Program-made: the position numbers and the translations under genes
Assembly: GCA_035529795.1 (NCBI GenBank)
Contig: DATKVZ010000034.1
Location: forward strand, 92,547-156,546
Direction of reading: 5' to 3'
Length of the DNA: 64,000 nt
Source of the DNA: Gallionella sp.
GTDB taxonomy: Bacteria; Pseudomonadota; Gammaproteobacteria; Burkholderiales; Gallionellaceae
The notes under the pieces: model-generated
Seen by the model: the letters and a program-made list of their open reading frames with translations, nothing else
What the model was told of the DNA's origin: nothing
The model's database searches: none
Part shown: piece after piece, positions 44,791 to 50,238 of the stretch
Position numbering within the stretch: the stretch's first letter is position 1
Layout: each line of letters starts with the position of its first letter

Positions 44791-44864
44791 GCGGGTGTAG
44801 TTCAATGGTAGAACGGCAGCTTCCCAAGCTGCATACGACGGTTCGATCCCGTTCACCCGCTCCA
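44791..44864 (+). tRNA. tRNA-Gly (CCC)
   Basis: 74-nt cloverleaf, anticodon arm GCAGC-TTCCCAA-GCTGC, CCA end. Confidence 0.97.
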
Positions 44865-44926: not shown

Positions 44927-45136
44927 ATGTTGAGCATAGAAAACCTGACACGTACTGAAAAACTGCGCATGCTGGAGGCAATCTGGGATGACCTAGCACG
45001 CGATCCGGCAGCGCTTATCCCACACGAATGGCATGCACAGGCACTCAAGGATGCCGAACGTGCCCATGCGGAAAACCAGGCCGGTTTTGTGTCCTGGGAT
45101 ATCGCCAAGAAGAAGCTGCGCGACGGCATGTCATGA
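44927..45136 (+). CDS. Putative addiction-module antitoxin component
   Basis: L...EKL...EAIWDDL...W-rich 69-aa ORF overlapping the downstream toxin gene. Confidence 0.75.
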   Translation: MLSIENLTRTEKLRMLEAIWDDLARDPAALIPHEWHAQALKDAERAHAENQAGFVSWDIAKKKLRDGMS

Positions 45137-45426
45137 AGATCGAGATTCTGGATATCGCAATGGGCGATCTCCAGGCCGGTCAGCAGTTTTATGAGCGGCA
45201 GCAGGAAGGGCTGGGTGCTTATTTTCTGGACTCGCTGTTTTCCGACATCGATGCGCTGCTGCTTTACGCTGGAATCCACCAGCAATTTTTCGGCTATTGC
45301 CGTGCGCTCTCGAAGCGGTTTCCTTACGCAATCTACTACCGTGTGTGTGGTGAAACCATCCAGGTTTGGCGTGTGCTGGATTGCCGACAAAAACCTTCGC
45401 GCATAGTCGGTGCGCTACGCGCTTGA
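45133..45426 (+). CDS. ParE/RelE-family toxin
   Basis: A..DL.....FYE.Q..GLG..F...RFPY.IYY...V.RVLD.R. Confidence 0.8.
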   Translation: MKIEILDIAMGDLQAGQQFYERQQEGLGAYFLDSLFSDIDALLLYAGIHQQFFGYCRALSKRFPYAIYYRVCGETIQVWRVLDCRQKPSRIVGALRA

Positions 45427-45491: not shown

Positions 45492-45527
45492 CTGCATACG
45501 ACGGTTCGATCCCGTTCACCCGCTCCA
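45492..45527 (+). repeat. Exact 36-bp copy of the tRNA-Gly 3' end (attR-like)
   Basis: ctgcatacgacggttcgatcccgttcacccgctcca, identical to 44829-44864. Confidence 0.97.
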
Positions 45528-45659
45528 TTCACTGCGCCGTTTTTCACGGCAATCTTCACACGATTCGTTCAGGTCAAAATTGACTCGCTGGTTCGGCATT
45601 CCGGATTGGATGAAAAATTGGGCATTTAATTCGAACCTGGCCCCTTTGATCTACGTTTG

Positions 45660-45698
45660 GTTAGGCGGAGATGTCAACTATTTTGGGGGAAGGTTACA
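45660..45698 (-). mobile_element. Orphan IS3-like terminal inverted-repeat remnant
   Basis: Minus strand TGTAACCTTCCCCCAAAATAGTTGACATCTCCGCCTAAC resembles IS3-group ends (TG...CCC...AATAGT.GACA...CTAA); from memory, not searched. Confidence 0.4.
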
Positions 45699-45723
45699 GT
45701 CCCTCTCGACTGCCGGGTTAGCC
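45699..45723 (-). other. Truncated attC site (R''/L'' half)
   Basis: Minus strand GGCTAAC-CCGGC-AGTCGAGAGGGAC contains the TAA stop of the preceding ORF. Confidence 0.6.
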
Positions 45724-46245
45724 TGATTTGTTTGCAAAGACATCAACTGGCTTTCCGTCCAAGTATGACTGTGCAAGCTCTGCAACAACATCGTATGAAG
45801 CTAGTAGATCCTCGTAGCGCCCAATGAAGGTACCCCATGGGTCTGCTTGTACCTTTTCTTTTACCGCAAGAATAAAAAATTCCTCCATGCTGTCCATCTG
45901 CTCATCCGCTACGCGCACACGCTCGAAAATGATGTGAAGGCAGTTACGCTCAATAGGCTTTAGGTGGGGATACAGTGACTCTTGAACGGAATAATAGCCT
46001 ACGGTAACAGTGTTGACCGATAACATCGGTAGGAAGCGTTGTTGCCTCATGTGGCTAATCGCTTGATTGAGGATGTCGCGCTTCTGCGGTAGTTGAGCTA
46101 AGACAGACTTTAGCTCCGTACGAACGAGGCGCTTGCTTCTCCATATCTCGGCACGGTAGCGAATATATCTGCTACCTTCACCGAGGGAAAAACCGATGGC
46201 GATACCAGCAAAAGCAATCAAAGACGAGGAATCAAATGCGCTCAT
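45718..46245 (-). CDS. Hypothetical cassette protein (N-terminal TM)
   Basis: 175-aa lower-GC ORF whose stop lies in the attC R'' box. Confidence 0.65.
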   Translation of the reverse strand: MSAFDSSSLIAFAGIAIGFSLGEGSRYIRYRAEIWRSKRLVRTELKSVLAQLPQKRDILNQAISHMRQQRFLPMLSVNTVTVGYYSVQESLYPHLKPIERNCLHIIFERVRVADEQMDSMEEFFILAVKEKVQADPWGTFIGRYEDLLASYDVVAELAQSYLDGKPVDVFANKSG

Positions 46246-46254
46246 TTGCGAAGA

Positions 46255-46584
46255 CTATGGGCAATTAATAATAATGCCCTGCTGCGATAATTTGTCACGC
46301 CGCTCGAAACATCTCTGCCGATTGCTAGCATTCATGTCTGCATCGTGAGCATCTCTGCCGGTGAACGGATTGACTGATCCCGGGTTTCGTTGCTCTGCAT
46401 TCGTGCCTCGTTTGTCGTAGTAAAAACCTGGAGGAGCTGGTGGTGTGTCGGATGATCCTTGCGGGTGAGTATCCCACTGAACGATCTGACCTTTGCATTC
46501 GCCCATAATTGTCGGGCCAATACAGCCTGCGTATGTAGTAGTTGAAGCTGTCAGTGCTATGAAAATTAGTGTAGTACGCTTCAT
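46255..46584 (-). CDS. Hypothetical secreted cassette protein
   Basis: Signal peptide; GTTAGCC-AAGGAG-N6-ATG start typical of gene cassettes. Confidence 0.65.
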   Translation of the reverse strand: MKRTTLIFIALTASTTTYAGCIGPTIMGECKGQIVQWDTHPQGSSDTPPAPPGFYYDKRGTNAEQRNPGSVNPFTGRDAHDADMNASNRQRCFERRDKLSQQGIIINCP

Positions 46585-46596
46585 GAGGTTCTCCTT

Positions 46597-46680
46597 GGCT
46601 AACGAATAGCGTTTATCTGCCGCCCTCCCCAGGATTGCTATACCCCCTGCCTTATCGGCGGCGGATAAACCTCGTTGGAC
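46597..46680 (-). other. attC-like recombination site
   Basis: Minus strand GTCCAAC...gtttatccgccgcc / ggcggcagataaac...GTTAGCC, an 84-nt imperfect palindrome. Confidence 0.65.
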
Positions 46681-46932
46681 TGAACCTATCGGAGAGCGGA
46701 ACCTATGGGGATTGTAAGGTTGCGCGATGGCAAGTCAACCGACTTTCATGAGGCAACCCAGACTGGTGACGCTGAAGCTGGTCTTTTCGCGCGATTTCAA
46801 CGTGCCGATCCGTACCAGAATTCCGCCCGGAGCGATACATGGAAGCACCATTCAGACTGCACGGACGAGCGCCACCCCGGCGTGCGCAAAAGCCAAGCCG
46901 CAGGATCAAGCTGACGGGAATACAAGAATGTC

Positions 46933-48084
46933 TCATGGCGGCCCTTGAGGTGGCGGGCGCGGCAAGGGAGAAGGCGGAATTGCTTCTATTACCACGAAGC
47001 GCCCTTCGCCGCAGTGCGGACATTTCAACCACTCGATGCTCGCCACCCGCTTCATAAATTCCGCCACCGACTCGACCACAACCGGGTCGGGAGCCGGTGC
47101 CTCCAGCGCGGCACGGGCTGCGGCAAGGTTGGCCGCCTTGTGCGCCGGGCCAATCAGCCCGTAATGGCGGATGCGCTTGAAGCCGCCGGGCAGCACATGC
47201 TGCATGAAGCGGCCGATGAATTGGGTTGCCTCCAAGCGCACCAGCTTCTTGCGGTTGCCGTTGGCGGAATCGCGCATGCGGAAACGGACCGTGCTTCCCT
47301 CCATGCCGAGGATGCGCTCGTTGGAAATCGCCACCCGGTGCGTGTAACGCCCCAGATACTCCAGCACCTGCGCCGGGCCGCCCAGCGGCTGCTTCGCGTA
47401 GACCACCCAATCGTGGCGGAGCAAAGCCGCGCACAGCTTGCGCCACGCCGCATCGTCCTTTGCCGTATCGTGGCGCAGCCCGCTTCGCGCGCCGTCGAGC
47501 GCATCAAGGAACTTGCCGCGATACACGCCAGAAAGCGCACGCACCGTAAACAGGAAACCACGTTTCGAACTCACCCAGTTGCCGTCTGCCGCCAGCGCCC
47601 CGCCTGCCACCAGCGCATGCACATGGACATGCCGACCGAGATCCTGCTTCCAGGTATGCAGCACCAACGTAAAGCTGGGTCGCCCACCCAGCCAGCGCGG
47701 ATTGGCGGCGAACTCGTTGAGCGTGGCGGAGACGGTATTGAACAGCAACGCATAGAGCGTGCGCGCATCGCATCCGGCCAGCCCGTTAAGCGTGTGCGGC
47801 AAGGTGAACACCAGATGGAAATACGGCACCGGCAACAACTCCCGTCGGCGTGCCGCCAACCAGGCCTCCTTGGCGCGCGTCTGGCACTGCGGGCAATGCC
47901 GGTTACGGCAGGAATGGTACAGGTAGCGCAGTACGCCGCAATGGTCGCAACACTCGACATGCCCGCCCAACACAAAGGTGCGGCACGCGACAATAGCCCG
48001 CCACGCCTTCTCCTGGACGGCGGACAGAGCGCGCGACGCGAGATAGGGCTGGCCGTGCGTGCGTAGAATATCGGCCAGACCCAC
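46933..48084 (-). CDS. IS91-family (Y2/HUH) transposase with Zn-binding N-terminus
   Basis: C..CRT..LGG, HSCRNRHCP.C, HVHVH (HUH), EYLGRYTHR (YxxxY); GTG start uncertain. Confidence 0.92.
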   Translation of the reverse strand: MGLADILRTHGQPYLASRALSAVQEKAWRAIVACRTFVLGGHVECCDHCGVLRYLYHSCRNRHCPQCQTRAKEAWLAARRRELLPVPYFHLVFTLPHTLNGLAGCDARTLYALLFNTVSATLNEFAANPRWLGGRPSFTLVLHTWKQDLGRHVHVHALVAGGALAADGNWVSSKRGFLFTVRALSGVYRGKFLDALDGARSGLRHDTAKDDAAWRKLCAALLRHDWVVYAKQPLGGPAQVLEYLGRYTHRVAISNERILGMEGSTVRFRMRDSANGNRKKLVRLEATQFIGRFMQHVLPGGFKRIRHYGLIGPAHKAANLAAARAALEAPAPDPVVVESVAEFMKRVASIEWLKCPHCGEGRFVVIEAIPPSPLPRPPPQGPP

Positions 48085-48104
48085 ACCGTGGGCCACGACA
48101 ACGG

Positions 48105-48983
48105 CTAGCGAAGGGCGGTGTCGAACAGCTCCAGCGGTGAAGTGGTGCCGGTCAGCTTGTGGTGCGCCAGATGGAAGTAGCGCATGGTGGTTCCCACATG
48201 ACCGTGACCGAGCAGTCGCTGGATAGTGTGGATGTCCACGCCAGACTCCAGCAGGTGGGTGGCGAAACAATGACGCAGCGTGTGGATGCCGCCAACACGT
48301 CCAAGCCCGGCTTTGTCTCGCGCGGCACAATACATGCGTTGCGCCGTCTGGATGGTTATCGGCTCCGTGCCGGTCGGGTTCGGGAACAGCCAGGTACGCG
48401 GACGACAGGCTTGCCAGTAGTCGCGCAGGGTTTGCAGCAAAGCGGGAGAAAGCATCGTGTAGCGATCCTTGCCACCCTTGCCGCCGCGCACCTTGATGCA
48501 CATCCGGTCCGGGGCGCTCTCGATGTCCGCCGCTCGCAGCGCACACACTTCGGATACGCGCAATCCCGCAGCGTAGGCGACCATCAGCAAGGTGCGGGCG
48601 CGCAGGTTCGACGCCGCTGCAAACACCCGCTTCACCTCATCCCGCGACAGTACGCGCGGCAAGGATTTGGGCACCTTCGCCATCGGGATGTCGTATCTGG
48701 ACAGCGGGCGTCGCAGCACCGCATCAAACAAGAACCTGCAAGCGCAGGCCGCCTGATTTACGCTCGAGTAAGCGAGCTTGCGCTCGACAACCAGATGCAG
48801 GAAGTAATCCTGTACTTCTTGTGGCGACAGAGAATCCGGCGTGCGGCGATAGTGCTTTGCCAGCCCTTTCACTGCATCCAGATAAGATTCACGCGTGCGC
48901 AACGCGAACCCGCGCAACACCATGGCATCATCCATCTGTTGGCGTAACGTCTTCCGGGCGCCCGGATAAATGTCTTGAGTCAT
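48105..48983 (-). CDS. Tyrosine recombinase (phage-integrase family, SAM-like N-terminus)
   Basis: YAAGLRVSE, HTLRH, LLGH...TMRY catalytic set; AAGGAG RBS. Confidence 0.93.
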   Translation of the reverse strand: MTQDIYPGARKTLRQQMDDAMVLRGFALRTRESYLDAVKGLAKHYRRTPDSLSPQEVQDYFLHLVVERKLAYSSVNQAACACRFLFDAVLRRPLSRYDIPMAKVPKSLPRVLSRDEVKRVFAAASNLRARTLLMVAYAAGLRVSEVCALRAADIESAPDRMCIKVRGGKGGKDRYTMLSPALLQTLRDYWQACRPRTWLFPNPTGTEPITIQTAQRMYCAARDKAGLGRVGGIHTLRHCFATHLLESGVDIHTIQRLLGHGHVGTTMRYFHLAHHKLTGTTSPLELFDTALR

Positions 48984-49347
48984 CTTCGTCTCCTTGATCG
49001 AATCGGGGACATCCCCCGCGACCAAGGATCGAAGATTTCTACGTGAATTGCAGCAAGGAAAAGCGGAAGTTGAAGAAGGGACGTTCGGGGCAACGCGCCA
49101 CCGCTTTAGCGGTTTAGTTCAACGTAAAGTAGACAGCCTAAAACGCGCCTGCAAAGGCACCTTCAGGGTGTATAAACTGGAAAGTATTTCGCAAGCCATT
49201 GTCTTTAAAGTCCGTGCAAATGTAGCGCACCCTAATTCCTTTGAAAATGGCACCATCCCTCGCCCAAGTAACGGGTTACTCCAAACACTCTGGAACACAC
49301 TAGCAGCAATACCTCTCCTTAACAATATGCCAAAAGGCCTAAGGGTC

Positions 49348-49375
49348 AAAGGGGTTAGCTCAAGCTGACCCCTTT
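49348..49375. repeat. 28-nt palindrome made of two copies of the 17-nt border motif
   Basis: aaaggggttagc-tcaa-gctgaccccttt. Confidence 0.75.
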
Positions 49376-49422: not shown

Positions 49423-50064
49423 CTACGGGCACATCGGTTTTGCACGTACTTTTTCTTTACTAATTCTCTCTAGAGTTTTAAAAAATTCTTGCTTTTGTTT
49501 TTCCTTAACTACCGGATACATCGCCTTTGTGGCAGTATCATAAGCCACTGCGGCGTTACTAATTGCCTCCATTTGATCTGATACTTTTGGTAGTGAAAGT
49601 CGTGCTTCTATTCCTGCAAAATGAGTAGCCCATTCAACCGCCAGTTGCGCAGCTTTTTGGGCTGCTAAAGCAGCGTTTTCTTCGGTAGTAGCCGATGCTG
49701 AAGAACCTCCAAGTCCTGATGATACCCATGCCTCATGCAGCTCTGCTTGAGTAGCATCCCCATTCGCATAACGCTCTGCCACCTCGATTGCTTTAACAAA
49801 CGATTCATTGCCGTACATTCCATATTTATGATTGCATTTCAACTGTCGAGCACACCATATTGCGTAAAGCCGCCAATATTTATCAAATTCTGGCAATGAC
49901 TGGCAGCACCATAAAGCTGAATACAGCCCTACTCTGTGTATAAGGCTATACAAATCAAGTGCATCATCATCAGGCTGAGTTTTCCCAAGGCTTTTGAGTA
50001 GTCGATCCCAAAGTTCTTTACTGGGATTGCACAAATAGATCCTGTTAAGTGTCGTCTGTATCAT
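49423..50064 (-). CDS. Phage-type hypothetical protein, Imm5-like family
   Basis: MIQTTLN...LLKSLGKTQPDD...ALWC...WRLYAIWCAR...AIEVAERYANG.AT..EL..AW recalls a widespread phage family; likely start ATG 50064; low GC. Confidence 0.55.
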   Translation of the reverse strand: MIQTTLNRIYLCNPSKELWDRLLKSLGKTQPDDDALDLYSLIHRVGLYSALWCCQSLPEFDKYWRLYAIWCARQLKCNHKYGMYGNESFVKAIEVAERYANGDATQAELHEAWVSSGLGGSSASATTEENAALAAQKAAQLAVEWATHFAGIEARLSLPKVSDQMEAISNAAVAYDTATKAMYPVVKEKQKQEFFKTLERISKEKVRAKPMCP

Positions 50065-50238
50065 TTCCAGTTCAATTTTGAATGTATGTGTCTCATCAAA
50101 CGGCCTGTTTAATTTTGAAATGCCTTCGTTCAAGTAACACGGGGCTCCAAACACTCTGGAACACACACTAGCAGCAAAATCCCCTAAAAACCATATACCA
50201 AAATACATAGGCAATTCGGAATCTAAAGAGTATCCGAT

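Follow-up and report, generated by a model that had tools for sequence, protein, structure and literature searches.

A 64,000-nucleotide (nt) stretch of Gallionella sp. DNA (contig DATKVZ010000034.1, positions 92,547 to 156,546), hereafter called the window, carries on its minus strand a 2,520-base-pair (bp) mobile unit (46603..49122) in which a tyrosine recombinase resembling the integron integrase IntI stands beside an IS91-type transposase. With moderate confidence, this unit can be regarded as an IS91-family element that has an attC-type hairpin at its ori-side end, whose circular form would be an integron cassette, and which would act as a self-replicating cassette. Two single-stranded-DNA mobility systems thereby appear to be fused in one element. 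The original prediction, made from the DNA letters alone, had described a recombinase and transposase element formatted like an integron cassette, and this format has been borne out. Throughout the betaproteobacterial clade, copies start with TTGAAC, end with a covarying attC of their own plus a G, and sit at the G|TT of attI or attC sites.

The processes that act on integron attC sites and on the bottom strand of IS91 have so far been studied apart, and this element physically joins both. It offers a system for asking how cassette substrates can arise without excision of the donor copy. It also bears on the role of the tyrosine recombinase beside the IS91 transposase, a question that dates from the cataloguing of such pairs, and on whether self-replicating cassettes parasitise integron platforms. 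Given that a relative is present in a clinical class 1 integron, the stability of cassette arrays and the expression of downstream resistance cassettes could be affected. In current annotation the two genes appear as a "site-specific integrase" and an "IS91 family transposase" that have nothing to do with each other.

Genes, ends, and hairpin of the unit

The unit is ordered as left inverted repeat (IRL), tyrosine recombinase, IS91 Y2 transposase, right inverted repeat (IRR), and a 78-nt attC-like hairpin, and all of these parts lie on the minus strand. Both genes had been named in the original prediction, and both are intact. The recombinase (292 amino acids, 48105..48983) matches Phage_integrase PF00589 (6.4e-36) and Phage_int_SAM_4 PF13495 (2.1e-20), and the catalytic residues readable in its translation, namely R (LRVSE), K (GKGGKDR), H-x-x-R (HTLRH), H (LLGHGH), and also Y (MRYFH), line up with structures of XerC-like proteins and of IntI. 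The transposase (387 amino acids, GTG start, 46933..48096) begins 8 nt past the recombinase stop and matches Y2_Tnp PF04986 (2.9e-54) and Zn_Tnp_IS91 PF14319 (4.7e-32). It also covers positions 2-355 of the 356 in NCBIfam NF033538 with 418.8 bits, against a cut-off of 125, and the HVHVH (HUH) and YLGRY (two-tyrosine) motifs are readable in its translation.

The best NCBIfam family of the recombinase is the integron integrase TIGR02249, reached with 185.5 bits in two stretches, below the cut-off of 265. The protein aligns in two pieces to VchIntIA (PDB 2A3V), an IntI; identity across the N-terminal domain and the catalytic domain is about 33%, the catalytic residues are present, and the IntI-specific insertion is absent. 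About 40 residues are missing opposite positions 180-251 of IntI4 and opposite the matching region of the intact IntI found beside one relative of the element (L002). The original prediction had proposed a check for this absence.

The element is widespread: relatives were sought in one genome per species, and 581 of the first 600 candidate stretches encode one. The 80 kept for comparison share 53-87% identity and come mostly from Betaproteobacteria (among them Gallionella, Sulfuricella, Sulfuriferula, Accumulibacter, Thauera, Azoarcus, and Undibacterium), and in 75 of them the recombinase gene immediately precedes that of the transposase. Of 61 complete copies, 57 have each gene free of interruptions, and the ratio of nonsynonymous to synonymous substitution rates (dN/dS) is 0.13-0.19 for the recombinase and 0.13-0.18 for the transposase. 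Judged by these ratios, both genes are under purifying selection.

The borders of the unit were set from about 60 relatives, in which the flanking sequences begin to differ precisely at G|TTGAAC and at ctattcG|TT. In addition, several short contigs start with GTTGAAC and stop at ...CTATTCGTT, and such breaks are the signature of a repeat whose copies differ in their neighbours. These borders require corrections to what had been predicted. The left-end GTTGAAC is at 49117-49123 rather than 49107-49113, a difference of 10 nt. At the other side, GTCCAAC (46674-46680) and an attC-like hairpin at 46597-46680 had been seen correctly, but GTCCAAC is not the right end, which is the G at 46603, 78 nt farther on. 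The span of 46597-49160 first assigned to the element must be narrowed to 46603-49122.

The inverted repeats, reported earlier as matching at 11 of 13 positions, were recovered by an exact search in which GTTGRACTRAACC matched only at 46674-46686 (plus strand) and 49111-49123 (minus strand). IRL (TTGAACTAAACCGC, 49109..49122), the 5' part of the cassette, is nearly invariant among 61 left ends, and it pairs or co-varies with IRR (GGTTCAGTCCAAC, 46674..46686), the final 7 nt of which form the R'' box of the attC that belongs to the element. Both repeats are retained in relatives that share just 53-87% protein identity, and across relatives IRL as TTGAACTAAACCGC and IRR as GCGGTTCAGTCCAA are conserved nearly letter for letter. 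A small hairpin, CCGC-TAAA-GCGG, lies at IRL (49101-49112), and most clades have a small hairpin within IRR too. The tetranucleotide that adjoins IRR on its outer side (46681-46683 and the equivalent positions in relatives) is CTCG or CTTG on the bottom strand, which are the ter cleavage and main target tetranucleotides of IS91; it could be a leftover or an additional point of IS91-style cleavage within the cassette.

Other cis sites are also conserved. The subterminal box CTTACAATCCCCAT (46705..46718), at least 90% conserved among 71 right ends, is a candidate recognition or nick region of the ori end, and motifs resembling it occur in Sinorhizobium and Mesorhizobium relatives and in a 426-bp mini-element described below. 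Near the left end, the palindrome TCCTTGrTCGC-GGGGGATGTCCCC-GATTCGATCAAGGA (48990..49035) forms a conserved block in the left-end alignment and overlaps the ribosome-binding site of the recombinase gene, where it could possibly serve as an operator or a translational control site. The palindrome around GGGGGATGTCCCC, with flanks TCCTTGrTCG/CGATCAAGGA, is present in most relatives. The inverted repeats, the IRL hairpin, the CTTACAATCCCCAT box, and this palindrome are conserved beyond the needs of a passive cassette.

The approximately 78 nt past IRR are kept in every copy with a readable right end (about 70), divergence sets in only after the terminal G, and none of these relatives has an IRR without an attC. 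The attC-like site (46603..46680) therefore belongs to the element, instead of being the site that precedes the next cassette and lends it a shared GTCCAAC box, as had been proposed. It consists of the R'' box GTCCAAC, a 14-bp inner stem (46657-46670 paired with 46611-46624), a variable loop, a 5-nt one-sided bulge GCTAT (46606-46610), and a final TCG|. Its consensus reads c(g/a)aggtttatc(c/t)gccgcc, variable loop, ggcggc(g/a)gataaacgctattcG. The boxes GTCCAAC / GTTTATC ... GATAAAC / GTT stand in the order known from the 59-base element (RYYYAAC, GTT..., ...AAC, GTTRRRY).

The fold was examined by aligning 49 distinct circle-junction sequences and counting pairs. The inner stem is paired in 96% of cases, with compensatory changes at 7 of its 14 pairs (one pair, for example, is C-G 26 times, U-A 18 times, and A-U once). 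In the outer stem, where IRR pairs with G plus IRL, the figure is 82%, and seven pairs are altered on both sides. The observed covariation was not attained by any of 500 shuffles, and slid controls pair at only 28-47%. At two outer positions the coding strand almost always has C.A, hence G.T on the bottom strand, and accordingly the bottom strand folds better; the fold energies are -23.8 kcal/mol (z -5.6) for the bottom strand and -19.7 kcal/mol (z -3.1) for the top. The arm-proximal GGTTTATC/GATAAAC and the GCTAT bulge are invariant, the distal stem merely covaries, and the loop is free to vary. These alignments indicate that the attC-like site is a selected structure and that it and the inverted repeats co-evolve with the element's genes.

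Insertion sites and joined forms among relatives

An alignment of the flanks of homologues had been suggested as a check on the original prediction, and it revealed the association with integron sites, attI1 and a clinical class 1 array among them. A G stands before the left junction in 54 of 55 cases, and right junctions read G|TT in 54 of 61. The full core GTTRRRY is present at 29 of these 61 right junctions, compared with about 6% expected by chance, most often as GTTAGGC (12 times) or GTTGGGC (nine times). There is no target-site duplication at the junctions of relatives. Copies occupy attI and attC sites in cassette orientation, and they sit only at the R' end of attC hairpins, never at R''.

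Flanks were classified by IntI homology, core-site statistics, and visible palindromes; hairpin detectors were discarded as non-discriminating. Home-made attC detectors, which combined core-site pairs with DNA folding, gave 19 matches in the 64-kb window, mostly false, and terminal hairpins of -12 kcal/mol or lower were not enriched in left flanks (4 of 52, against 17 of 144 control GTT sites).

Five relatives (L002, L026, L031, L033, and L075) have an intact IntI gene that diverges from the element and lies 87-150 bp upstream of it. The IntI of L002 scores 491.9 bits against TIGR02249 (cut-off 265), and that of L075, in Thauera propionica, is identical to IntI1 (100%), with the element inserted exactly at the attI1 crossover, ...ccctaaaacaaaG|TT. 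The attI types in use are attI1, a tctactttacG type, a gtatacattacG type, and a tgtcaac-repeat type. The left-flank motif tctactttacG| is shared by the window copy, L002, L003, L005, L026, L031, and L046. Plain attC palindromes ending in G form the left flank of seven other copies (L004, L007, L014, L017, L024, L039, and L069). A truncated intI lies beside the element in L003, L010, L046, L052, and the window. Roughly half of the copies next to attI, L005 among them, retain just the first 15-105 codons of intI, which could reflect ordinary integron decay or an IS91-type read-through or deletion from the ter end.

One relative (L081, NZ_AP018145.1, 122231-124811) resides on the Escherichia coli IncC plasmid pM216_AC2, where it is the second cassette in a clinical class 1 integron with the order intI1, aac(6')-IIa, element, aadA4, qacEdelta1, sul1. 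As far as its G, the aac(6')-IIa attC is undamaged, and past the attC of the element the sequence continues as G|TTAGGC-aadA4. The plasmid record annotates the element only as "site-specific integrase" and "IS91 family transposase". A search for its spread found no other plasmid of this kind in PLSDB and no match in the complete E. coli RefSeq genomes.

Copies are also found joined to each other. Ten contigs from metagenomes contain the exact junction GATAAACGCTATTCG|TTGAACTAAACCGC. Two of them, L089 and L093, hold hetero-tandems of two different elements, 80% and 91% identical, joined as attC-G|TTGAAC, which shows that one element has used the attC of another as its target. Single units with terminal overlaps were found in a contig of a species-representative genome (L037, 121 nt) and in one of the ten metagenome contigs (L092, 55 nt), and these are either circles or identical tandems. 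Detection of circular junctions was a further check suggested earlier; these overlaps are indirect evidence of such junctions in relatives, and the assembled contigs give none for the window copy.

A 426-bp derivative without genes (L095:409-834, metagenome contig Ga0209320_10080274) consists of IRL with its hairpin, a CTTACATTCCCCAT box, IRR, and attC. It resides in a cassette array, in tandem behind the end of another element and before a BrnT/BrnA-like toxin-antitoxin cassette. This derivative resembles a miniature inverted-repeat transposable element and is presumably mobilised in trans.

Some relatives occur outside integrons. In a Variovorax-type clade, the element occupies G|NT sites that are not attC, with two copies on two plasmids. 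Sinorhizobium plasmids hold many copies that are at least 99% identical. The Sinorhizobium relatives (L082, L085-L088) share the IRL, show the two C-versus-T asymmetries in IRR as well, and carry a hairpin past IRR, while their ends, GGATTGAAC ... CCAGATTCC, differ from those of the betaproteobacterial copies. Their circle junction adopts the same type of fold, again with the bottom strand favoured (-40.7 kcal/mol, against -35.8 kcal/mol for the top). The Sinorhizobium insertions are flanked by GAATC...(N)...GATTC palindromes, some of them inside copies of other insertion sequences (IS), which suggests that the alphaproteobacterial clade may also target hairpin-forming repeats. A survey of 243 alphaproteobacterial genomes found no integrons, In0 elements, or attC-site clusters without an integron integrase (CALINs) (PMC4889954). 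Because the Sinorhizobium and Variovorax-type relatives live outside integrons, it would follow that the module of hairpin and recombinase is older than its association with integrons and can work without IntI.

These comparisons bear on the simplest alternative, in which an IS91-like IS running from IRL to IRR once landed beside an attC and the composite has since been moved by host IntI alone, its own genes being irrelevant. The inverted repeats do delimit a conventional-looking IS inside the cassette, and the window copy is single and static, as passive cargo would be. This explanation is disfavoured and seems very improbable, since it would have to account for two genes that stay intact at low dN/dS across the whole divergence of the relatives (53-87% identity), for an attC that diverges and covaries along with the element, and for the lack of any IRR without an attC. 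It also fails to anticipate that relatives without integrons show the same junction fold, or that the mini-derivative retains the inverted repeats and the box besides its attC.

How the element might move

Comparison with known mobile systems helps to frame the reading of the unit as a self-replicating cassette. As in integron cassettes, the element starts with TTRRRY (TTGAAC), ends in an imperfect palindrome with the R'' box RYYYAAC (GTCCAAC) and R' G|TT, and has 2L/2R-like boxes (GTTTATC/GATAAAC). It stands first at attI or between cassettes in cassette orientation, and it joins in tandem through attC. Unlike typical cassettes, which carry one promoterless cargo gene, it is 2.5 kb long and has two mobility genes. 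Its attC, moreover, is conserved in sequence across hosts, with an R-box stem lengthened to about 17 bp by the terminal inverted repeats, an atypical box spacing, and no extrahelical base in the L box.

The likeness to IS91, IS801, IS1294, and ISCR elements lies in the HUH/Y2 transposase with its zinc-binding N-terminus, the subterminal palindromes at both ends, and the lack of a target duplication. The upstream open reading frame (ORF) is tightly coupled to tnpA, a circular form would join the ends, and a bottom-strand logic is plausible (PMC13181058). What sets the element apart from the IS91 family is its 13-14-nt terminal inverted repeats, an upstream ORF that is a full tyrosine recombinase, and the 78-nt attC-type hairpin at the ori end. 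IS91 targets (GTTC, CTTG, or GTCC) abut the ori end, whereas the junction on the outside of the element reads G|TTRRRY, or YYAA|C on the bottom strand, and CT(C/T)G next to IRR is confined to an internal position, before the attC stem.

ISfinder catalogues members of the IS91 family that have a "phage integrase" ORF upstream, among them ISShvi3, ISAzo26, and ISSod25. These members have the same gene pair as the element described here. Searches of the searchable full-text literature found one passing sentence on ISShvi3 and nothing on the ends, the conserved attC, attI targeting, or the mechanism. Other mobile elements specialised on integron recombination sites are the IS1111-attC group and the group IIC-attC introns. 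These insert inside attC and interrupt the site, by means of a DEDD transposase or a retro-homing ribozyme, whereas the element described here carries its own attC, fills a cassette slot, and leaves its neighbours undisturbed, as the intact attC of aac(6')-IIa illustrates.

Recombination of integron attC sites involves their folded bottom strands. For IS91, work from 2026 showed that insertion occurs solely as a single-stranded DNA circle of the bottom strand, and the IS91 ori end has subterminal palindromes (PMC13181058). The idea, already part of the original prediction, that the HUH enzyme could feed a single-stranded intermediate into cassette recombination is backed by this work, and the recombinogenic strand of attC is likewise the bottom one. 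In the mechanism proposed here, the transposase would nick the right (ori) end and peel off the bottom strand as a single-stranded circle while the donor is retained, after the model of IS91. Within that circle, IRR would pair with IRL, including the two G.T pairs of the bottom strand, and the inner stem would fold to give a bottom-strand hairpin of the attC type. A tyrosine recombinase would then exchange strands at AA|C (top strand G|TT) and join the circle to attI or attC, and replication would resolve the product. A related proposal, that the element might also shuffle neighbouring cassettes, has gained no support.

The question of which recombinase performs the exchange may have a divided answer. 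It is established that recognition of an attI is confined to its cognate IntI. Because the attI sites used by the element differ greatly, exchange at attI would most likely be carried out by the resident IntI. The element's own proteins arguably also act at its attC, given the invariant arms, the GCTAT bulge, the inverted repeats, the CTTACAATCCCCAT box, and the existence of relatives free of integrons. Its IntI-like recombinase would bind the invariant arms of its own site, and in integron-free lineages it might suffice alone.

If this autonomy were extended to all lineages, the element's recombinase would both excise it and integrate it at G|TT (or G|NT) without host IntI, with attI and attC as merely preferred targets and the transposase merely amplifying copies. 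Such a route would accord with alphaproteobacterial relatives that are active without integrons, with the non-attC G|NT sites of the Variovorax-type clade, with the sequence-invariant arms of the element's attC, and with IntI being the nearest family of the recombinase. It nevertheless appears unlikely, in that attI sites used are very different while each has its cognate IntI, and the recombinase lacks the insertion with which IntI contacts extrahelical bases.

A different simplification would leave recombination entirely to the transposase, which would cleave and join at RYYYAA|C on the bottom strand, with the recombinase as an accessory like Orf121 of IS91. YYAA|C is indeed common to the ter end, GTTCAA|C, and to the targets, which read either GCCTAA|C or GCCCAA|C, and for IS801 and IS1294 the site of ter cleavage is identical to the target tetranucleotide. 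Absence of a target duplication, subterminal palindromes at both ends as in IS91, and the IS91 target and ter motif CT(C/T)G beside IRR on the bottom strand are also in keeping with HUH chemistry alone. We consider this quite unlikely nonetheless. Insertions cluster at attI by intI and at the R' end only of attC, a pattern that fits the polarity of IntI and not a motif of 4-7 nt that is common genome-wide, and a catalytically complete recombinase has been held under purifying selection.

Several points weigh against the preferred reading, in which transposase-made circles act as cassettes. The direction of transposase-driven strand displacement is borrowed by analogy from IS91, and identical tandem copies can equally yield the circularly permuted contigs. 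The geometry of the attC-like site is atypical, with box spacers of 3 and 7 nt compared with about 5 and 6, no extra base in the L box, and a 1x5 asymmetric loop that places a 5-nt bulge on the 5' arm of the bottom strand, such that recognition by IntI would not be guaranteed. About half of the left flanks are not objectively classifiable as attC or attI. Finally, the exact recombinase protein of the window is found at a single locus only, in seven public contigs that always have the same arrangement, and hence the window copy gives no sign of recent movement. No back-joint or circle junction of this copy was found in the assembled Logan contigs of runs that hold the locus, a search that is uninformative on rare forms.

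A bolder reading would see the ori-end hairpin as homologous to attC and as a living model of the origin of attC and cassettes. On that view, IS91-type read-through past ter would package upstream DNA into an attC-bearing circle, and decay to gene-less mini-elements of the L095 type would leave a "gene plus attC", which would amount to de novo cassette formation. The recombinase without the I2 insertion would then be a pre-integron or sister state of IntI. We would give this reading as a whole only a slim chance.

The window copy and its surroundings

The window copy is best explained as an old, single, fixed first-cassette insertion at the attI of an integron since stripped of its intI. At the left end of the element, 49107-49237 is 78% identical over 131 nt to the attI and intI start of L002, which has an intact IntI, and it is similar to the corresponding region of L005. 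The attI remnant of the decayed integron occupies 49123..49221 on the minus strand, with the crossover G at 49123. Adjoining it on the plus strand is a truncated intI (49222..49360) of about 30 N-terminal codons plus a 14-codon insertion, which BLASTP matches to the N-terminus of the L002 IntI (E 0.003). No further IntI-like sequence was found within the 64-kb window.

The original prediction had also placed a degenerate attC outside the right end. Its stem (tagacagcct/agggtgtata, 49131-49175) was rejected as such a site and is instead part of the attI remnant, in the region that is 78% identical to the attI and intI start of L002.

On the other side of the element, TTAGCC (46597..46602, minus strand) is the start of a downstream cassette-like segment and forms, with the element's G, the hybrid core site GTTAGCC. 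Two ORFs follow, of 109 amino acids (46255-46584) and 175 amino acids (45718-46245). No attC was found past these two ORFs; GGCTAAC/GCCTAAC boxes at 45657-45715 lack a palindrome.

The element lies in a low-GC island that adjoins a tRNA-Gly gene. An Rfam scan of the island scored only the tRNA, plus one sub-threshold small-RNA match, and gave no hit for the attC-like site. The last 37 nt of the tRNA-Gly(ccc) gene (44791-44864) are repeated exactly at 45493-45529. The tRNA repeats bracket a 0.63-kb islet with an antitoxin gene (PF09720, 44870-45136) and an overlapping ParE/RelE-like ORF (45133-45426), and this islet looks like a tiny toxin-antitoxin element integrated at the tRNA. A direct repeat of about 80 nt with 77% identity (49257-49335 and 50123-50203) brackets a low-GC ORF (49423-50214, 261/263 amino acids) that has no Pfam or NCBIfam match. 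The first copy of this repeat lies within the truncated intI and shows up there as the 14-codon insertion, and the repeat may mark another small insertion or an island edge beside a major facilitator superfamily (MFS) transporter gene.

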